A DNA stretch of 18,212 bases from a virus (Duplodnaviria > Heunggongvirae > Uroviricota > Caudoviricetes): the IMG/VR virus record IMGVR_UViG_2617271087_000009. One strand, 5' to 3'. The notes beneath the pieces were generated by a model that was given only the letters and a program-made list of their open reading frames with translations, did not search any database and was not told the origin of the DNA. Position numbers and translations under genes: made by a program. Shown here piece by piece: positions 3,096-18,212 of the stretch. Within the stretch, counting starts at the first letter, position 1. Every line of letters begins with the position of its first letter.

Positions 3096-3319
3096 TGCCG
3101 GACAACGTAGATTTTATTCAGGAACAACAGGCTGAATTACTGGAGCGCCAGATTAACGCGGCAAGGGTAAAGCATTGCGGTGTTTCTGCGCTGGTTTGCG
3201 AAGAGTGTGACGCGCCAATACCTGCTGCCCGTCGTGCGGCTTATCCGTCAGCCACGCGTTGTGTTTCCTGCCAGTCAGTCTTTGAAGCAAAAAACAAACA
3301 TTACCGGAGAACGGCATGA
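3095..3319 (+). CDS. TraR/DksA-type C4 zinc-finger protein (P2 orf82-like)
   Basis: 74 aa with C-x2-C ... C-x2-C (CEEC...CVSC), the four-cysteine arrangement of TraR/DksA-family phage proteins; AAAAGGAG RBS at 3081-3088. Confidence 0.75.
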   Translation: MPDNVDFIQEQQAELLERQINAARVKHCGVSALVCEECDAPIPAARRAAYPSATRCVSCQSVFEAKNKHYRRTA

Positions 3320-3597
3320 GTATTCGTATTGAAATTGGCGAGCGTTATGTCGTCACAAATGACCGTTTTCAGTTCATTTTGCAGGAGAGAAAGACCGCTG
3401 AAACCGGGAAGAATGCCGGTAAAGAGTGGCTGGATGTTGTCGGCTATTACCCCAAATTAAACCAGCTCGTTTCCGGTCTGATCCATCACGATATTTTGAG
3501 CGGTAACGCTGTCTCTTTTGAGGCGCTGAGCTCTCAGGTTGAGCAGCTCGGTCAGCAGTGTCTGACTGCGTTTCTCTGTGCGGGGAAATCTAAATGA
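3316..3597 (+). CDS. Small early hypothetical protein (P2 orf83 position)
   Basis: 93-aa ORF; ATG at 3316 overlaps the upstream stop (ATGA); GGAGA RBS at 3306-3310. Confidence 0.6.
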   Translation: MSIRIEIGERYVVTNDRFQFILQERKTAETGKNAGKEWLDVVGYYPKLNQLVSGLIHHDILSGNAVSFEALSSQVEQLGQQCLTAFLCAGKSK

Positions 3598-4602
3598 TAG
3601 TTGATACCCGCTGCCGAGCTGAAAGCTCTATCAATATTATTTCTGTTTCTGGCGGAAAGGATAGCCTTGCTCAATGGCTTGTTGGTATTGAAAGCGGTGT
3701 GCATTTTTTTGCCGGTTTTTGCAGACACCGGGCATGAGCATCCGCAGACAATGGAGTATCTCGATTATCTGGAGAACCGACTCGGGCCGGTTAAACGGGT
3801 TAAAGCTGACTTCTCCCGACAGATTGAAGGTAAGCGCAAGTTTATTGCTGAGAAATGGCCTGTTTCTCTGGTTGAAGAGTGCGGAATGTCTCCGGGGGAA
3901 GCGGCAGAGCGCATCAATTGTGCGCTGGAAATTCTCAAGCCTACTGGTATCCCATTTCTTGATTTGTGCATGTGGAAAGGGCGATTTCCTTCCACTAAAG
4001 CCAGATTTTGCACTTTTGACCTTAAACATGAGCCAGTACGTACTCAGGTCGTGTTACCTGCGCTTAATGAGTTTGATGAGGTAATTAGCTGGCAGGGGAT
4101 TCGCGCTCAGGAGTCTCCTGCGCGCGCGGGTCTGCCTGCCTGGGAAGAGGATGCGGACAATACGCCCGGGCTCCATGTATACCGTCCTATTCTGAACTGG
4201 ACGCATGAGGAGGTATTTGCATTTGCAAGACGTCATGGAATTAAACCTAATCCGTTATACCAGCAGGGATGCAGTCGTGTCGGTTGTATGCCCTGCATCC
4301 ACGCCAGAAAGTCTGAATTAGCTGAAATTTTTAGTCGCTGGCCGGAAGAGGTTAAGCGTGTTGCGGAATGGGAGCGACTTGTCGCCGCATGCTCCAGACG
4401 CGGAAATTCTACTTTCTTCCCGTCAACTCATGACCCGCGTCGTGCGGAACGCCGCATTGATATTATTACTGTCGATGCTTACGGAATTGAGTCTTATCGT
4501 GACTGGGCGATGACCACGCGTGGCGGGGCACAGTTTGATTTGCTGGCTTCGGTGAATGATAAGTCAGTTTGCAGTAGTGTCTATGCCGGTGTATGTGAAT
4601 GA
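3594..4602 (+). pseudogene. PAPS reductase / DndC-like PP-loop protein with Cys cluster, interrupted by a +1 frameshift in a T7 run (3704-3710); possibly a sequencing error
   Basis: Frame 0 from ATG 3594 (overlapping the orf83 stop) encodes MIVDTRCRAESSINIISVSGGKDSLAQWLVGIESGVHFF and stops at 3735-3737. Frame +1 continues FLPVFADTGHEHPQTMEY... to 4602. SGGKDS followed about 25 residues later by DTG...P.T is the PAPS-reductase family signature, but here it is split across frames. Removing one T from the T7 run restores one ORF of about 335 aa. C-terminal GCSRVGCMPC cysteine cluster. Confidence 0.7.
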
Positions 4603-6884
4603 GTCATTCTTTCCAGGAGCAATACACCTGCGTACCTCCGTCAGCATTTGCTGCAGGCACCGGTAAGGCGTTTACCGGTGCTTATGCATGGAACGCGCCA
4701 CGCGAGGCCGTCGGGCGCGAAAGACCCCTTACACGTGACGAGATGCGTCAGGTGCAAGGTGTTTTATCCACGATTAACCGCCTGCCTTACTTTTTGCGCT
4801 CGCTGTTTACTTCACGCTATGACTACATCCGGCGCAATAAAAGCCCGGTGCACGGGTTTTATTTCCTCACATCTACTTTTCAGCGTCGTTTATGGCCGCG
4901 CATTGAGCGCGTGAATCAGCGCCATGAAATGAACACCGACGCGTCGTTGCTATTTCTGGCAGAGCGTGACCACTATGCGCGCCTGCCTGGAATGAATGAC
5001 AAGGAGCTGAAAAAGTTTGCCGCCCGTATCTCATCGCAGCTTTTCATGATGTATGAGGAACTCTGCGATGCATGGGTTGATGCACATGGCGAAAAAGAAT
5101 CGCTGTTTACGGATGAGGCGCAGACTCACCTGTATGGTCATGTTGCTGGCGCTGCACGTGCTTTCAATATTTCCCCGCTCTACTGGAAAAAATACCGTAA
5201 AGGACAGATAACCACGAGGCAGGCATATTCTGCCATTGCCCGTCTGTTTAACGATGAGTGGTGGACTCATCAGCTTAAAGGCCAGCGTATGCGCTGGCAT
5301 GAGGCGTTACTGATTGCTGTCGGGGAGGTCAATAAAGACCGTTCTCCTTATGCCAGTAAACATGCCATTCGTGATGTGCGTGCGCGCCGCCAGGCAAATC
5401 TGGAGTTTCTTAAATCGTGTGACCTTGAAAACAGGGAAACCGGCGAACGCATCGACCTTATCAGTAAGGTGATGGGCAGTATTTCTAATCCTGAAATTCG
5501 CCGGATGGAGCTGATGAACACCATTGCCGGTATTGAGCGTTACGCCGCCGCAGAGGGTGATGTGGGGATGTTTATCACGCTGACCGCGCCGTCAAAGTAT
5601 CACCCGACACGTCAGGTCGGAAAAGGCGAAAGTAAAACCGTTCAGCTTAATCACGGCTGGAACGATGAGGCATTTAATCCAAAGGATGCGCAGCGTTATC
5701 TCTGCCGTATCTGGAGCCTGATGCGCACGGCATTCAAGGATAATGATTTACAGGTCTACGGTTTGCGAGTCGTCGAGCCACACCACGACGGAACGCCGCA
5801 CTGGCATATGATGCTTTTTTGTAATCCACGCCAGCGTAACCAGATTATTGAAATCATGCGTCGCTACGCGCTCAAAGAGGATGGCGACGAAAGAGGAGCT
5901 GCGCGAAACCGTTTTCAGGCAAAACACCTTAACCGGGGCGGTGCTGCAGGGTATATCGCGAAATACATCTCAAAAAACATCGATGGCTATGCACTGGATG
6001 GTCAGCTCGATAACGATACCGGCAGGCCGCTGAAAGACACTGCCGCGGCTGTTACCGCATGGGCGTCAACGTGGCGCATTCCGCAATTTAAAACGGTTGG
6101 CCTGCCGACAATGGGGGCTTACCGTGAACTACGCAAATTGCCTCGCGGCGTCAGCATTGCTGATGAGTTTGACGAGCGCGTCGAGGCTGCACGCGCCGCT
6201 GCAGACAGTGGTGATTTTGCGTTGTATATCAGCGCGCAGGGCGGGGCAAATGTCCCGCGCGATTGTCAGACTGTCAGGGTCGCCCGTAGCCCGTCGGATG
6301 ACGTTAACGAGTACGAGGAAGAAGTCGAGAGAGTGGTCGGCATTTACGCGCCGCATCTCGGCGCGCGTCATATTCATATCACCAGAACGACGGACTGGCG
6401 CATTGTTCCGAAAGTGCCGGTCGTTGAGCCTTTGACTTTAAAAAGCGGCATCGCCGCGCCTCGGAGTCCTGTCAATAACTGTGGAAAGCTCACCGGTGGT
6501 GATACTTCGTTACCGGCTCCCACACCTTCTGAGCACGCCGCAGCAGTGCTTAATCTGGTAGATGACGGTGTTATCGAATGGAATGACCCGGAGGTCGTGA
6601 GGGCGCTCAGAGGTGCATTAAAACACGGCCTGAGAAGACCAAACCGTCAGCAAAGAAACGGAAGCCCGTTAAAACCGCATGAAATAGCGCCATCGGCCAG
6701 ACTGACCCGGTCTGAACGATTGCAAATCACCCGTATCCGCGTTGACCTTGCTCAGAACGGTATCAGGCCGCAGCGATGGGAGCTTGAGGCGCTGGCGCGT
6801 GGCGCGACCGTAAATTATGACGGGAAAAAATTCACGTATCCGGTCGCTGATGAGTGGTCGGGATTCTGGCATCAATTTGAGTAA
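4599..6884 (+). CDS. A: Replication initiation protein A (rolling-circle HUH endonuclease), 761 aa
   Basis: 761 aa equals P2 gpA length; HUH-like motif (GTPHWHMMLF) and tyrosine-containing active-site region (GYIAKYISKNIDGY); start overlaps the upstream stop (ATGA). Confidence 0.9.
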   Translation: MSHSFQEQYTCVPPSAFAAGTGKAFTGAYAWNAPREAVGRERPLTRDEMRQVQGVLSTINRLPYFLRSLFTSRYDYIRRNKSPVHGFYFLTSTFQRRLWPRIERVNQRHEMNTDASLLFLAERDHYARLPGMNDKELKKFAARISSQLFMMYEELCDAWVDAHGEKESLFTDEAQTHLYGHVAGAARAFNISPLYWKKYRKGQITTRQAYSAIARLFNDEWWTHQLKGQRMRWHEALLIAVGEVNKDRSPYASKHAIRDVRARRQANLEFLKSCDLENRETGERIDLISKVMGSISNPEIRRMELMNTIAGIERYAAAEGDVGMFITLTAPSKYHPTRQVGKGESKTVQLNHGWNDEAFNPKDAQRYLCRIWSLMRTAFKDNDLQVYGLRVVEPHHDGTPHWHMMLFCNPRQRNQIIEIMRRYALKEDGDERGAARNRFQAKHLNRGGAAGYIAKYISKNIDGYALDGQLDNDTGRPLKDTAAAVTAWASTWRIPQFKTVGLPTMGAYRELRKLPRGVSIADEFDERVEAARAAADSGDFALYISAQGGANVPRDCQTVRVARSPSDDVNEYEEEVERVVGIYAPHLGARHIHITRTTDWRIVPKVPVVEPLTLKSGIAAPRSPVNNCGKLTGGDTSLPAPTPSEHAAAVLNLVDDGVIEWNDPEVVRALRGALKHGLRRPNRQQRNGSPLKPHEIAPSARLTRSERLQITRIRVDLAQNGIRPQRWELEALARGATVNYDGKKFTYPVADEWSGFWHQFE
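6456..6475 (+). other. Candidate origin / A-protein nick region inside the A coding sequence
   Basis: GCGCCTCGGAGTCCTGTCAA matches my recollection of the P2 ori sequence, which is known to lie within the 3' part of gene A. Recall-based, not computed. Confidence 0.4.
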
Positions 6885-7010: not shown

Positions 7011-7202
7011 ATGTTAAAGCCTGCAGATGTTGTTTGTTTGAAAAGCGGTGGATTTAAAATGACTGTATCTGACTCTACTGAAACTCATGCTAAATGTATT
7101 TGGCATGATAAAGAAGGAGTTTTGCACGAGGAGTCATTCTCCATTGATTTACTGGAAATAGCAGAGAGTAAAAGTGGTATGCTTTGTCGTCCACGTAAGT
7201 GA
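7011..7202 (+). CDS. Small protein (63 aa), YodC/DUF2158-like, first gene of the cargo island
   Basis: ATG at 7011 with GGAGA RBS. The pattern V.LKSGG.KMTV ... C.W.D ... F recalls the DUF2158 (YodC) small-protein family, from memory only. AT-rich codon usage unlike the flanking phage genes. Confidence 0.6.
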   Translation: MLKPADVVCLKSGGFKMTVSDSTETHAKCIWHDKEGVLHEESFSIDLLEIAESKSGMLCRPRK

Positions 7203-7229: not shown

Positions 7230-7910
7230 ATGAAACAATACAGCGAATTAGAAAACAATGTTAAGAGATTCATTGTTGAGCATGAAAAAGGGATTTCTAT
7301 TGATGATATTCATCATAAGTTCCGGATGAAGGATGGTCAGAATCGCAAGATGGCAGATTATCTTATTGATAATAAAAAGATAATTTTGGAGATGAAAAGT
7401 CTTTTTTCTGACAGGGTCAAGAATGTCAATGATAAACTGAATGAGTTGGTTAAAACTGATAATTGGCTTGCAAAAAACTGGCATGGTGCTATTCATTTAG
7501 AAGAGTTGATAAAAAGACACCCAGACTCAAAGCGATTTAGAAATGATATAATGAACTTTGCTTATGAAAATATTAAAACAAAGATAGTTAAGGAAGCTAA
7601 TAAGCAAATAAATGCAACAAAGGATGTTTTGGATTTAAATGACTCGATTGGCGGGTTGATTTTGTTAAATGATAATGTCTTTTCACATGAGTCTAATTAT
7701 TTGTCAGATGAAATATTATATTTGCTAGGCACAAAGAGATATTCGAGTGTTGAGTTTGTGGTTTATATTGCAAAATTGATTGATAAACAGGTTGATGTTT
7801 GTGTGCTACTTGACAGTCAATCTAAAAATAAAAATTATATTGAATGGTATATGAATAATGTTTTTTTATTGAACTGGGCGTCTTTTAATAAATATGCAAT
7901 AAAGATGTAG
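7230..7910 (+). CDS. Hypothetical protein (226 aa), cargo gene of unknown function
   Basis: ATG at 7230 with GGGGGAAAG RBS, 27 nt after the upstream stop, so probably co-transcribed. K/N/E-rich, AT-rich; no motif I recognise, no predicted transmembrane segment. Confidence 0.7.
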   Translation: MKQYSELENNVKRFIVEHEKGISIDDIHHKFRMKDGQNRKMADYLIDNKKIILEMKSLFSDRVKNVNDKLNELVKTDNWLAKNWHGAIHLEELIKRHPDSKRFRNDIMNFAYENIKTKIVKEANKQINATKDVLDLNDSIGGLILLNDNVFSHESNYLSDEILYLLGTKRYSSVEFVVYIAKLIDKQVDVCVLLDSQSKNKNYIEWYMNNVFLLNWASFNKYAIKM

Positions 7911-8229: not shown

Positions 8230-9171
8230 TTAAGTTAATTTTAATGAATGGTACTCTATCGAGCTGATTGTAGATGCGATATATTTACGATCATTTACAG
8301 AGAGTATTGCCGCTAGTAGACGACATACCAGAGCCTGCATTTGTAGCAATATATCGCTACCATATTGACAATCATTGATACTAGAGAAACCAAGCGGTTG
8401 CCCATTAAAAATGGCTTCATGAAAATTATCATTGCGTATAACTGAAACATTACATTCATCTGTTGCCCATGACGGGATTTTTACACCGTAATTTTCGCAC
8501 ATCCAATATACTCTATTTTGATGAGATGGTTTTTTCTCTTTAATGACTTTATCCCTTTCATCCCATGCTATAGCAAAACAGCAATCAAGAGCCATATAAA
8601 GATACTGGAATTTCTCAAAGGAAAGGTATAGTGGGTTATGTGACAGGAATAGGGAGTGTATCACCGCAGCTATTCTTTTAATGGAGCGATCATCTTTTTG
8701 TTTGTCTTTTATATAGTTAAGTGCTAGCTCTATTACTTCTTTTTCAGAGCATCCAACGAGAATAAAGTCGGTTAACTTAGTGGGCTTGATAGTGGTTGCA
8801 TCAAGAAAACCAGCGTCAGTGGTTGTCAATCTTATACCCTTGAAAAAAGAGAGGCACCACACAACAAAGTTGAGAGTTTCTAACGAGGATGTGTTTTTTA
8901 ATTTTAGTGTGTGCGTTTTGGGCATGCCGAATACTCGGTAACTATAAGGCATTGTGCATGTGTCACCATTAAGGTTATATACCTTTCGATTCCCAGGGTA
9001 TATCCAACCATTAACAACGTTTTTATCATTGTTAATACGTTCCACGTTCTCAATAAGACCGGGTAAAGTACGCAAAGAAAATTGTTCAGTCTCAATGTTA
9101 ACTTCTACTGGATAGTATCCAAACTCCGAAATAATCTCATTTGGTTGCTGTTCGTCAACTTCACCTTGCAT
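8230..9171 (-). CDS. Hypothetical protein (313 aa), cargo gene of unknown function
   Basis: ATG (reverse complement of 9169-9171) preceded by GGAGAAAG RBS; convergent with the 7011-7910 operon; AT-rich. It contains an R-x4-H motif (RNDNFH, residues about 246-251) reminiscent of HEPN Rx4-6H, which is weak evidence. Confidence 0.7.
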   Translation of the reverse strand: MQGEVDEQQPNEIISEFGYYPVEVNIETEQFSLRTLPGLIENVERINNDKNVVNGWIYPGNRKVYNLNGDTCTMPYSYRVFGMPKTHTLKLKNTSSLETLNFVVWCLSFFKGIRLTTTDAGFLDATTIKPTKLTDFILVGCSEKEVIELALNYIKDKQKDDRSIKRIAAVIHSLFLSHNPLYLSFEKFQYLYMALDCCFAIAWDERDKVIKEKKPSHQNRVYWMCENYGVKIPSWATDECNVSVIRNDNFHEAIFNGQPLGFSSINDCQYGSDILLQMQALVCRLLAAILSVNDRKYIASTISSIEYHSLKLT

Positions 9172-9589: not shown

Positions 9590-10624
9590 TCAGCCGTTGT
9601 CAGTGTCAAGTGAGTAGTTTTTAAAGCGGATGACCTCCTGACCGAGCCAGTCGTTTATCTCGCGGATCCTGTCCTGTAACGGGATAAGCTCATTGCGGAC
9701 AAAGACCTTTGCCACTTTCTCAATATCACCCAGCGACCCGACGTTCTCCGGCTTGCCACCCATCAACTGAAAGGGGATGCGGTGCGCGTCCAGCAGGTCA
9801 GCGGCGCTGGCTTTTTTGATATTAAAAAAATCGTCCTTCGTCGCCACTTCACTGAGGGGGATAATTTTAATGCCGTCGGCTTTCCCCTGTGGGGCATAGA
9901 GAAACAGATTTTTAAAGTTATTGCGGCCTTTCGACTTCACCATGTTTTCGCGAAGCATTTCGATATCGTTGCGATCCTGCACGGCATCGGTGACGTACAT
10001 GATGTATCCAGCATGTGCGCCATTTTCGTAATACTTGCGGCGGAACAGCGTGGCCGACTCATTCAGCCAGGCAGAGTTAAGGGCGCTGAGATATTCCGGC
10101 AGGCCGTACAGCTCCTGATTAATATCCGGCTCCAGCAGGTGAAACACGGAGCCGGACGCGAAGGCTGTCGGCTCGTTGAAGGACGGCACCCACCAGTAAA
10201 CATCCTCCTCCACGCCACGGCGGGTATATTTTGCCGGTGAGGTTTCCAGCCTGATAACCTTACCGGTGGTGCTGTAACGCTTTTCCAGAAACGCATTACC
10301 GAACACCAGAAAATCCAGCACAAAGCGGCTGAAATCCTGCTGGGAAAGCCACGGGTGCGGAATAAACGTTGAAGCCAGAATATTACGTTTGACGTAAATC
10401 GGTGAGCTGTGATGTACGGCAGCACGCAGGCTTTTTGCCAGACCGGTAAAGCTGACCGGTGGCTCATACCATCTGCCGTTACTGATGCACTCGACGTAAT
10501 CCAGAATGTCACGGCGGTCGAGTACCGGCACCGGCTCACCAAAGGTGAATGCCTCCATTTTCGGGGCGCTGGCGGTCATTGTTTTCACCGCAGGTTGCGG
10601 TGTTTTCCCTTTTTTCTTGCTCAT
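9590..10624 (-). CDS. Q: Portal protein Q (344 aa)
   Basis: 344 aa equals P2 gpQ length; start ATG overlaps the P stop (ATGA); adjacent to terminase. Confidence 0.9.
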   Translation of the reverse strand: MSKKKGKTPQPAVKTMTASAPKMEAFTFGEPVPVLDRRDILDYVECISNGRWYEPPVSFTGLAKSLRAAVHHSSPIYVKRNILASTFIPHPWLSQQDFSRFVLDFLVFGNAFLEKRYSTTGKVIRLETSPAKYTRRGVEEDVYWWVPSFNEPTAFASGSVFHLLEPDINQELYGLPEYLSALNSAWLNESATLFRRKYYENGAHAGYIMYVTDAVQDRNDIEMLRENMVKSKGRNNFKNLFLYAPQGKADGIKIIPLSEVATKDDFFNIKKASAADLLDAHRIPFQLMGGKPENVGSLGDIEKVAKVFVRNELIPLQDRIREINDWLGQEVIRFKNYSLDTDNG

Positions 10625-12395
10625 CAGTAAAACTCCAGAATGGTGGATGTCAGCGGGGTGCTGATACCGGCGGTGAGTGGCTCATTTAACAGGGCGTGCA
10701 TGGTCGCCCAGGCGAGGTCGGCGTGGCTGGCTTCCTCGCTGCGACTGGCCTCATAGGTGGCGCTGCGTCCGCTGCTGGTCATGGTCTTGCGGATAGCCAT
10801 AAACGAGCTGGTGATGTCGGTGGCGCTGACGTCATATTCCAGACAGCCACGGCGGATAACGTCTTTTGCCTTGAGCACCATTGCGGTTTTCATTTCCGGT
10901 GTGTAGCGGATATCGCGCGCGGCGGGATAGAACGAGCGCACGAGCTGGAACACGCCGACACCGAGGCCGGTGGCATCAATACCGATGTATTCGACGTTAT
11001 ATTTTTCGGTGAGTTTGCGGATGGATTCAGCCTGGGTGGCAAAGTCCATGCCTTTCCACTGGTGACGCTCAAGTATCCTGAATTTGCCACCGGCCACCAC
11101 CGGCGGTGCCAGCACCACGCATCCGGCGCTGTCGCCACGGTGTGACGGGTCGTAACCAATCCATACCGGGCGGGAGCCGAACGGATTGGCGGCAAACGGT
11201 GCATAGTCTTCCCATTCTTCCAGCGTGTCGACCATGCAGCGTTGCAGCTCCTCGAACGGGAACACCGATGCCTTGTCGTCAACAAATTCACACATGAACA
11301 GGTTTTTAAAATCGTCGGCGCTGTTTTCGCGTTTGAGCTGCTCAATGTCGAACAGTGTGCAGCCACCTTTCAGGGCGTCCTCAATGGTGACAATCTGCCG
11401 CCACTGGCCGTCCGCACAGAGAAGCCCACCGGCAAGGGCGTTATGACTGACGTCGATTTCCACACGTTCGGCGGCGCTGGCGCGTCCCCGGTTGAACAGT
11501 TCACCCGACCAGAACGGGTAGCGTCGTGCGCCAGTGTGGACGGGGTGGAGAAATAGGTCGAGCGCAGGTGACTCTGTGAGGCCATACCTGATGCCACCTT
11601 ACGCAGAACCTGAAAATTTGGGATCCAGAAAATCTCGTCGACGTACAGGTCACCGTTATGGCTCTGTGCGGTGTTGGAGTTGGTGCCGAGAAAAATCAGT
11701 TTTGCGCCGTTATTGCCCAGGACAATCGGGTCACCGGTCAGGTCAACGTCAACCAGACGGGCAAAGGCGATGATGTATTCACGGAACACATACGCCTGCG
11801 TTTTACTGGCCGACAGAAAAATCTGGTTATGACCGGTTTTCAGGGCGCGCAGCAGCGCCTCGCGGGAAAAATAAAATGTCGCGCCAATCTGGCGGGATTT
11901 CAGGATATCGCGGATGCGGTGCTCAAGCCCGGCGCGATACCAGTGCAACTGATAGTCGAAAGACTGCTCAAAGAAAATCTGCTCCAGCTTTTCGATAGCC
12001 TCGTCACTGAAAAAATTCTTTTTCGGTTTGCGCCGCCCGCCTTTGTTGCGGTTAGCGACGTTCGGATTAAGGTCTGCCTCGTTGCCGGTCTGGCTGTAGC
12101 GGTTTACCCGTGCCAGTCGTTCAATCTGGCGTCCGAGCAGGTCAATTTCCTTGAAGTCACCGCCGGTTTTCTGCGGTTTGATAATGAGCTGGGTCAGCCG
12201 CGCTTCCAGACTCATTTCGACACGGCTGATGGGGGCAACGCTGTCCCAGCCGTCGCGCTGTTTCCAGCTCTGCACCGTCGGGCGTTTCATCTGCAACATG
12301 GCGGCAATCTGCGGCACGGAAAACCCCTGCCAGTACAGCAGCGCCGCCTGACGACGCGGGTCGTGTAAAAGAGTGGTGTCTGTGGTGATGGTCAT
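10624..12395 (-). pseudogene. P: Terminase large (ATPase) subunit P, split by an apparent 1-nt deletion near 11515-11530; possibly a sequencing error
   Basis: N-terminal part from ATG 12393-12395 (MTITTDTTLLHDPRR...) runs in one frame to a stop at 11370. The C-terminal part (…YPFWSGELFNRGRASAAERVEIDVSHNALAGG…) is in another frame that is open from 11598 to the stop at 10624-10626. The coding span is 1769 nt, one short of the 1770 needed for the 590-aa P2 gpP. Sensible protein sequence switches frames at about AHDA|YPFW. Confidence 0.8.
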
Positions 12396-12568
12396 GAATA
12401 CCTCGCCGTGATGAATACACGGCAAGGCTACTGAGTCGCGCCCCGCGATTCGCTAAGGTGCTGTTGTGTCAGTGATAAGCCATCCGGGACTGATGGCGGA
12501 GGATGCGCATCGTCGGGAAACTGATGCCGACATGTGACTCCTCTAATCACTATTCAGGACTCCTGACA
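12396..12568. promoter_or_regulatory. Divergent late-promoter region (P_P leftward, P_O rightward), expected Ogr-dependent
   Basis: Intergenic region between divergent P and O, as in P2. A TGT-N12-CAC element (12533-12550) partly resembles the TGT-N12-ACA late-promoter upstream motif. Not resolved further. Confidence 0.35.
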
Positions 12569-13423
12569 ATGGCAAAAAAAGTCTCAAAATTCTTTCGTAT
12601 CGGCGTTGAGGGTGACACCTGTGACGGGCGTGTCATCAGTGCGCAGGATATTCAGGAAATGGCCGAAACCTTTGACCCGCGAGTCTATGGTTGCCGCATT
12701 AACCTGGAACATCTGCGCGGCATCCTGCCTGACGGTATTTTTAAGCGTTATGGCGATGTGGTCGAACTGAAGGCCGAAAAGATTGACGATGATTCGGCGC
12801 TGAAAGGCAAATGGGCGCTGTTTGCGAAAATCACCCCGACCGATGACCTTATCGCGATGAACAAGGCCGCGCAGAAGGTCTACACCTCAATGGAAATTCA
12901 GCCGAACTTTGCCAACACCGGCAAATGTTATCTGGTGGGGCTGGCCGTCACCGATGACCCGGCAAGCCTCGGCACGGAATACCTGGAATTCTGCCGCACG
13001 GCAAAACACAACCCTCTGAACCGCTTCAAATTAAGCCCTGAAAACCTGATTTCAGTGGCAACGCCCGTTGAGCTGGAATTTGAAGACCTGCCTGAAACCG
13101 TGTTCACCGCCCTGACCGAAAAGGTGAAATCCATTTTTGGCCGCAAACAGGCCAGCGATGACGCCCGTCTGAATGACGTGCATGAAGCGGTGACCGCTGT
13201 TGCTGAACATGTGCAGGAAAAACTGAGCGCCACTGAGCAGCGCCTCGCTGAGATGGAAACCGCCTTTTCCGCACTTAAGCAGGCGGTGACTGACAGGGCG
13301 GATGAAACCAGCCAGGCATTCACCCGCCTGAAAAACAGTCTCGACCACACCGAAAGTCTGACCCAGCAGCGCCGCAGCAAGGCCACCGGTGGTGGCGGTG
13401 ACGGCCTGATGACGAACTGCTGA
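12569..13423 (+). CDS. O: Capsid scaffold protein O (284 aa)
   Basis: Internal ATG at 12569 (MAKKVSKFFRIGVEGDTCDGRV...) gives 284 aa, the P2 gpO length; coiled-coil-like C-terminus. Confidence 0.9.
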   Translation: MAKKVSKFFRIGVEGDTCDGRVISAQDIQEMAETFDPRVYGCRINLEHLRGILPDGIFKRYGDVVELKAEKIDDDSALKGKWALFAKITPTDDLIAMNKAAQKVYTSMEIQPNFANTGKCYLVGLAVTDDPASLGTEYLEFCRTAKHNPLNRFKLSPENLISVATPVELEFEDLPETVFTALTEKVKSIFGRKQASDDARLNDVHEAVTAVAEHVQEKLSATEQRLAEMETAFSALKQAVTDRADETSQAFTRLKNSLDHTESLTQQRRSKATGGGGDGLMTNC

Positions 13424-16117: not shown

Positions 16118-16411
16118 ATGACAGCAGAAGAAAAAAGCGTCCTGTCGCTTTTCATGATTGGGGTGCTGATTGTTGTCGGCAAGGTGCTTGCCGGTGGTGA
16201 ACCCATCACCCCGCGTCTGTTTATCGGGCGCATGTTGCTCGGCGGTTTTGTCTCGATGGTTGCCGGTGTTGTTCTGGTGCAGTTTCCTGACCTGTCACTG
16301 CCTGCGGTGTGCGGCATCGGTTCCATGCTGGGTATCGCCGGTTATCAGGTGATTGAGATTGCCATTCAGCGCCGCTTTAAGGCAGGGGGAAACCGTAATG
16401 CCGGTAATTAA
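16118..16411 (+). CDS. Y: Holin Y
   Basis: 97-aa hydrophobic protein with transmembrane-like stretches (LSLFMIGVLIVVGKVLAGG; FVSMVAGVVLVQF) and a charged C-terminus; GGGAG RBS; first gene of the lysis cassette. Confidence 0.85.
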   Translation: MTAEEKSVLSLFMIGVLIVVGKVLAGGEPITPRLFIGRMLLGGFVSMVAGVVLVQFPDLSLPAVCGIGSMLGIAGYQVIEIAIQRRFKAGGNRNAGN

Positions 16412-17748: not shown

Positions 17749-17875
17749 CCCGCAGACGAACGGCGATTTAAGTGCTGATATCCGGCAGCTTGAGAACGCG
17801 CTGGCACGCTGTGCCAGCCAGGTAAAAATGATTAAACACTGTCAGGACGAAAACGATGCTTGCGTATTACCGTGA
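17603..17875 (+). CDS. lysC: LysC (90 aa), Rz1-like o-spanin lipoprotein, overlapping lysB in the +1 frame
   Basis: ATG at 17603 with GAGGT RBS; signal peptide plus lipobox (LMLCAGC); Pro-rich mature region; begins inside lysB and extends past it. Confidence 0.7.
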   Translation: MKTKIFAAGTALTCLMLCAGCTSVRPAPTPVIVANACPKVSLCPMPGSDPQTNGDLSADIRQLENALARCASQVKMIKHCQDENDACVLP

Positions 17876-18212
17876 AGGAGATCGGTGAGTAACATCGATG
17901 GAGATCGGTTCGTGTCACTTTCACAGAACCGTTTTTAAATTACCTTCACTGATCTCCTTCGGTCAACGGAGATTGTATTTTCCGCATTGATTCTCCTTTA
18001 AGTTCGATCTTGATACTGCCATGAACCAGTCGATCTAGGATGGCATCCGCATGTGTGGAGTCTCCGATCATTTTGTACCAGTTTTCCACCGGCAACTGGC
18101 TCACTACGATGATTGAGCCTCGTTGGTACATCAGATCCACTATTTCCAGCAGGTCGCTACGCTGTTCTGATGAGAGAGGTTCCAGCCCCCAGTCATCCAG
18201 AAGCAGCAGATC
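17876..18212 (-). mobile_element. IS21-family insertion sequence, right end; continues beyond the window
   Basis: Contains the istB 3' end. The 70 bp between the lysC stop and the istB stop carries repeated motifs (GGAGATCGGT at 17877-17886 and 17900-17909, and an inverted GGAGATCAG copy at about 17947-17958), typical of multi-repeat IS21 termini. The exact boundary is not determined. Confidence 0.65.
17946..18212 (-). CDS. istB: IstB (IS21-family transposition helper ATPase), C-terminal part; N-terminus off-window
   Basis: Minus-strand translation from the window edge: DLLLLDDWGLEPLSSEQRSDLLEIVDLMYQRGSIIVVSQLPVENWYKMIGDSTHADAILDRLVHGSIKIELKGESMRK... This carries the Walker B (hhhhDD) region and conserved C-terminus of IstB. 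The track's 64-aa ORF is only the tail. Confidence 0.8.
   Translation of the reverse strand, partial: DLLLLDDWGLEPLSSEQRSDLLEIVDLMYQRGSIIVVSQLPVENWYKMIGDSTHADAILDRLVHGSIKIELKGESMRKIQSPLTEGDQ

Follow-up and report, generated by a model that had tools for sequence, protein, structure and literature searches.

The orf84-like gene described here, a non-essential accessory gene of a P2-like prophage, has very probably been inactivated by a heritable +1T frameshift of single origin. The DNA analysed, referred to below as the window, is 18,212 nucleotides long and corresponds to the left 18 kb of the prophage, in which the gene order is integrase, C repressor, cox, B, orf80-83, the orf84-like gene, A, cargo, portal, terminase, capsid and lysis. 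A replication slip would have added one T to the T6 run of the codons CAT-TTT-TTG (His-Phe-Leu), with the result that translation would end after 47 codons and the orf84-like protein would be lost. The slip would have arisen once and then been stably inherited, becoming common in public assemblies. The T7 lesion is already known, as the gene is flagged as a pseudogene in RefSeq, and it is an ordinary pseudogene. The features of the locus are listed here.

3316..3597, plus strand: orf83-like DUF5405 gene (PF17399, E 6.8e-13), the stop of which shares an ATGA with ATG 3594
3594..3737, plus strand: N-terminal fragment of the orf84-like PAPS-reductase-family gene, 47 codons and TGA
3648-3665, plus strand: PP-loop SGGKDS, inside the N-terminal fragment
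3704..3710, plus strand: T7 run, the frameshift site, one T above the T6 of intact alleles
3711..4602, plus strand: rest of the orf84-like gene in the +1 frame, residues 39-335 of the restored protein
3716..3720, plus strand: T5 run, Val-Phe codons of VFADTG, equal in all alleles and with no part in the lesion
3751..3753, plus strand: in-frame ATG, Met53 of the restored protein, 13 nt past the premature stop; candidate restart site
4599..4602, plus strand: ATGA overlap of the orf84-like stop (4600-4602) with the gene A start
4599..6884, plus strand: gene A, replication endonuclease, intact, 761 aa

Reading of the frames agreed with what the first-pass annotation had described at this locus. 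The SGGKDS motif is encoded in the frame of ATG 3594, which is joined to orf83 by the ATGA overlap, reads MIVDTRCRAESSINIISVSGGKDSLAQWLVGIESGVHFFAGFCRHRA and halts at TGA 3735-3737. An open +1 frame extends from 3601 to 4602 and continues from the tract on as LPVFADTGHEHPQT...GCSRVGCMPC (4267-4296)...GVCE and the stop codon; it carries the FADTGHEHPQT signature with its DTG motif, the conserved C139, the C231/C234 pair (4285-4296) and the C-terminal C326/C334. The switch between frames falls at the T7 run, with the T5 run close after it. The premature TGA overlaps an ATG of the third frame (3734-3736), which is open to 4084 and lies within an ORF at 3719-4084, and ribosomes terminating at 3735-3737 could restart in that frame at ATG 3734 or, alternatively, at ATG 3751. 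Five homopolymer runs of at least 7 bases are present in the window, three of which lie in other genes (7861-7867, 9824-9830 and 12574-12580), all inside intact ORFs, so a 7-base run as such is not unusual. The unusual feature of the T7 run is its length relative to orthologues.

With one T deleted from the run, the frame encodes 335 aa, the same sequence as the protein of the viable Yersinia phage P37. Exact look-up found this restored protein on 128 public contigs. A tblastn search of phage genomes identified orf84 (CP84) of coliphage 186, a gene of the early lytic operon, as the orthologue (82.3% amino acid identity over residues 2-335). The two genes share the PAPS_reduct domain, the slot between orf83 and A, and the ATGA junction with A, whereas the window copy carries the T7 run and is cut off after 47 codons and the 186 copy reads CCGCGCACCACT at the tract position, where it has no T-run. 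The window, the common E. coli allele and phage 186 share the final 21 nt of orf84 and the ATGA without a difference. The first-pass annotation had not recognised the orthology with 186 orf84 and had not considered coupling to gene A. In the GenBank record of 186, Orf84 is annotated as 'not essential'. Most phage records matching the region (71 of 75) have no orf84-like gene, and in those orf83 abuts A; the gene is therefore an accessory early gene. Because most P2-type phages do without the gene and its 186 orthologue is annotated as non-essential, loss of it would be tolerated. The intact family shows strong purifying selection (dN/dS 0.08 between the two E. coli alleles) and is large, with 3,066 cluster representatives when E is limited to 0.001.

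With T7, the gene is 100% identical over all 1,009 nt in nine complete E. coli genomes: 4/0, Ecol_656, JJ2434, 1442, 736, NR1441, Esc30, Esc31 and BLSE177-2012. One of these carriers, JJ2434, is an ST131 H30-Rx isolate (PMC3870262). Five of the nine were inspected, from isolates of the USA, Sweden, Japan and Belgium, and in all five the prophage lies beside yegR and the gene is marked 'frameshifted' in RefSeq. T7 is also found in an IMG/VR contig, and the 311-aa ORF that exists only with T7 (window 3667-4599) is present on 277 contigs (464 index blocks of the public collection). Comparison with orthologues, which had been proposed as a way of finding a T6 counterpart, recovered T6 in 12 records (five further complete genomes, two isolated phages, four contigs from IMG/VR and one from a metagenome), with intact alleles including that of phage P37. 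In an alignment of the window with phage P37 and 'P2SIDE7', T7 versus T6 is the sole difference in 200 nt. A pattern spanning the tract, run as one scan each, contributed one T6 contig from the metagenome contigs and none from the genome contigs.

These records bear directly on whether the lesion might be a homopolymer error of sequencing or assembly, the true sequence being T6 and the gene intact, as the first-pass annotation had suggested among its explanations. The source assembly of the window may indeed be prone to such errors, because three other single-base homopolymer indels (1037, 11521 and 16381) occur in the window alone and not in prophages that otherwise match it exactly. For the T7 run, however, the probability of an error is practically negligible: T7 is common to nine finished genomes from different laboratories and countries, to the IMG/VR contig and to the 277 contigs with the diagnostic ORF; T6 was called correctly in the 12 other records; and T7 tracks one haplotype in the records compared instead of being scattered among alleles. 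For the lineage, an assembly artefact at 3704-3710 is refuted. The genuine inactivating slip, which had also been put forward, is supported by the T7 run in the nine finished genomes, by the single haplotype and by the intact T6 protein found elsewhere. For curation, the lesson is that the T7 lesion should neither be 'repaired' as an assembly error nor be read as a contingency switch.

The T7 prophage was found at two bona fide att sites, namely yegR (21 contigs) and gsiD (IS29 and GCA_964019685.1). The yegR copies include 4/0, JJ2434 and others, and in the gsiD copies the prophage lies downstream of gsiD. Both junctions show the P2-type core AAGCC...AAGGGAGATT (L021:6312-6400 against L005:15912-16000; L029). 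Over the 14.6 kb compared, the window itself is 100% identical to the end of contig CBWH010000002.1 from E. coli IS29. Since the same T7 prophage occupies two att sites, the frameshift arose before the element changed site. A mosaic prophage at yegR (L027; GCA_001030325.1, KQ087645.1) contains a block identical to the window from 3272 to 4951, which indicates one T7 origin followed by recombination, not recurrent slips. In this mosaic the orf81/82 region and gene A are diverged, the cargo consists of DNA_methylase and two unknown proteins, and the flanks differ.

Natural alleles that differ by one T might instead suggest a contingency tract that switches a DNA-modification or anti-restriction function on and off, a phase-variable arrangement that had likewise been raised in the first-pass annotation. 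T6 and T7 do occur on nearly identical alleles, and the tract lies early in the ORF, where toggling would be effective. Known slipped-strand switches use runs of about 8 or more, and a run of only 6-7 is short by comparison. Exact look-ups in the collection returned T6 or T7 products only, with none for T5, T8 or T9. T7 was present in 21/21 yegR-site contigs and in 9/9 complete genomes without a T6 sibling, and all T7 copies compared belong to one haplotype; among these copies, ON and OFF states were not found together in one lineage. Conservation of the tract across orthologues was also not seen, as the T-run is missing from most homologues: GVHFLP occurs at the tract in 1 of 120 cluster representatives, the encoded loop is hypervariable, and the common E. 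coli allele (53 genomes, 82% amino acid identity) reads CCCATATTG at this position. A switch of this kind is consequently very unlikely, and the T6 run is, to judge from the codons, an accident of His-Phe-Leu in a hypervariable loop.

Recoding on the U7 run would have left the gene functional, with programmed +1 (or -2) ribosomal frameshifting or transcriptional slippage producing the full-length protein. A +1 slip of tRNA-Phe on UUU_U would give the exact wild-type H-F-L-P, and a +1 shift anywhere ahead of the stop at 3735 would give a protein of the same length. The heptamer U_UUU_UUU, however, favours -1 slippage, which leads into the wrong frame (3719-4084); only +1 or -2 restores the protein. 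Nearly all of the homologues listed consist of one stand-alone ORF of about 300-380 aa, and among the homologue sequences examined there was no two-frame arrangement, contrary to the conserved layout that had been entertained as a possible refutation of the slip. No stable RNA structure was seen after the tract, where the 3690-3800 fold was no better than shuffles (z = -0.24), and T6 is the ancestral state. Programmed recoding thus appears extremely unlikely as an explanation of the T7 allele. Slippage of polymerase or ribosome on the U7 run may correct the frame at a low level.

Loss of the orf84-like reading frame may also affect the gene downstream. According to the GenBank annotation of 186, translation of the A protein apparently needs translation to the end of orf84. 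The slip may lower gpA translation because the premature stop lies 862 nt ahead of the ATGA junction with A, and, if 186-type coupling holds in the window prophage, gpA synthesis would fall. A promoter and terminator scan was without specific signal and revealed no promoter-like site on the plus strand in 3737-4599. A Shine-Dalgarno-like GGTGTAT (4588-4594) is located 5 nt upstream of the A start and has a perfect complement in ATACACC (4622-4628), within A codons 8-10. A different hairpin lies over the A start in phage 186. Sequestration of the A ribosome-binding site could conceivably be a basis of orf84-to-A coupling.

These features raise the question of whether reduced gpA was itself selected, the slip uncoupling gpA translation and thereby stabilising the prophage in a successful host clone; if so, it would do more than remove an accessory enzyme. 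The 186 annotation, the conserved junction, the potential pairing of the A ribosome-binding region with 4622-4628, the promoter scan and the abundance of the T7 allele on 277 contigs are all consistent with such attenuation. We nevertheless regard it as unlikely. Folds of the junction RNA were no better than shuffled controls (z = -0.41 and -1.11), restart at ATG 3751 could preserve coupling to A, and the abundance of the allele may only reflect hitch-hiking with the host clone. In addition, the T7 prophage occupies two att sites and also occurs in a recombinant mosaic, which indicates that the element remained active after the slip and speaks against a strong block of gene A by polarity. Simple loss of a dispensable accessory gene through one inherited slip is the reading that we prefer. 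The remaining interest lies in the role of a widespread phage enzyme family that is found beside replication genes and DNA methylases, and in the possible polar effect on A. The T7 null allele and the intact T6 allele of phage P37 form a ready isogenic pair for both a counter-defence or DNA-modification role and the coupling of orf84 to A.

The restored protein is a member of Pfam PAPS_reduct (PF01507; 123.3 bits against a cut-off of 22.5, residues 15-236), and its AF2 model (pLDDT 80.6, C-terminus disordered) has the adenine-nucleotide alpha-hydrolase fold. CysH and APS reductases head the PDB fold matches, with probability 1.0, and TtuA sulfurtransferases follow; sequence and fold searches of the PDB returned these generic families only, with no DndC or SspD structure. 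Among homologues of 38-56% identity, SGGKDS, D44-T-G-x-E48, Cys139, Cys231, Cys234, Cys326 and Cys334 are invariant or at least 90% conserved. The first-pass annotation had called the gene PAPS-reductase/DndC-like. The domain and the PP-loop uphold the first half of that call, but the likeness to DndC and BrxP amounts to distant homology only, with models that are sub-threshold or partial. DndC itself scored 22.6 bits against 290.4 (TIGR03183), with no dnd genes in the window and with orf83 and A as neighbours. SspD matched in two stretches (76 bits over the protein as a whole), and the better of these spans positions 72-202 of the 277-position profile; there are no ssp neighbours. The BrxP match covers profile positions 212-336 of 779 only, with no BREX genes nearby. 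The protein also fell below the cut-offs of the CysH equivalog models (NF002537, 66.8 against 154; TIGR00434, 45.6 against 165; TIGR02057, 41.7 against 254; TIGR02055, 55.2 against 235).

Proteins of the Dnd, Ssp and BREX type 4 phosphorothioation systems (DndC, SspD and BrxP) have the PP-loop ATP-pyrophosphatase fold and conserved cysteines in common with the restored protein. Its partial HMM matches to SspD (E 8.6e-22), BrxP (1.1e-15) and DndC (6.5e-7) are confined to the C-terminal half of the domain, and the window gene lacks DndA/D/E, SspABC or BREX partner genes. BrxP is also far longer, with a 779-position profile and extra domains that are absent here (PMC12839542). Among solved structures, CysH gave the best matches (6vpu, 2goy and 1sur; Foldseek E about 1e-7, TM 0.56-0.60 by target). 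Sulfonucleotide reductases are not known to have the canonical SGGKDS PP-loop, which the restored protein retains, and it differs from CysH further in a 55-residue helical insert and in its C-terminus (...GVCE). Its GC-x-PC aligns with the Fe-S CxxC motif of APS reductase. The TtuA-type PP-loop/[4Fe-4S] tRNA sulfurtransferases are second-tier fold matches (5ztb, 5gha and 5b4e; E 3e-5 to 3e-4) and resemble the restored protein in combining a PP-loop with a cysteine cluster, whereas TM is low (0.32-0.37), rmsd is high and there is no family match at the sequence level.

A counter-defence role in DNA modification is likely for the intact enzyme. Divergent homologues have ParB_N, helicase and primase genes as neighbours in phage early operons, and elsewhere they adjoin N6/N4 and C5 DNA methyltransferases or stand directly upstream of Prim-Pol. 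The enzyme would probably adenylate a nucleic-acid substrate and transfer sulfur or another group to it, and the modification might shield the DNA of the phage from host defences, for instance phosphorothioate-dependent restriction of the Dnd type. We propose with moderate to low confidence that phage nucleic acid would be modified in an ATP-dependent reaction, assisted by Fe-S or thiol groups, and that this would serve counter-defence. A search of the literature for an experimentally defined role of stand-alone phage PAPS reductases returned AMG-style annotations only, the anti-Dnd case of a vibriophage excepted. In vibriophage 44E38.1, p0018 is a 479-aa fusion of a PAPS-reductase domain with Dam, and its transfer together with one neighbour gene conferred anti-Dnd activity (Piel et al., 10.1101/2021.05.05.442762; this preprint is cited in PMC13551039). 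By its description, p0018 resembles the window protein in being a phage PAPS-reductase-domain protein from a variable early region. It provided the one experiment found that ties a phage copy to counter-defence, but it involves a Dam fusion and a second gene, unlike the window gene, and the E. coli hosts of the window prophage are not known to have a Dnd system.

The cargo between A and the portal gene occupies three positions.

7011-7202, plus strand: cargo gene
7230-7910, plus strand: cargo gene
8230-9171, minus strand: cargo gene

These genes encode a DUF2158 small protein and proteins of 226 aa and 313 aa, the latter two without a Pfam or PADLOC match. They lie in the A-Q variable region, which houses defence genes in other P2-like phages; in relatives it contains restriction-modification genes, Dcm or different cargo.

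Set against more than 20 prophages that otherwise match it exactly, the window has the private indels at 1037 (T9 versus T8, between int and C), 11521 (GGG versus GGGG) and 16381 (G5 versus G6), as well as a SNP at 7462. Through the indel at 11521, gene P for the terminase ATPase (10624-12396, minus strand) falls apart into two ORFs, and the indel at 16381 changes the holin C-terminus. The three indels may be errors of the IS29 draft or real, private decay. Similarity to the reference prophage ends at 17860, inside lysB/lysC, and is followed by 352 nt (17861-18212) whose reverse strand looks IstB-type helper-like by eye. In complete genomes matching through 18212, an IS21-like ISEc12 transposase is annotated in the matched region. 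The stretch 17861-18212 appears to be the end of an IS21-family element, and, as the contig ends inside it, the lysis region of the window copy would be interrupted.
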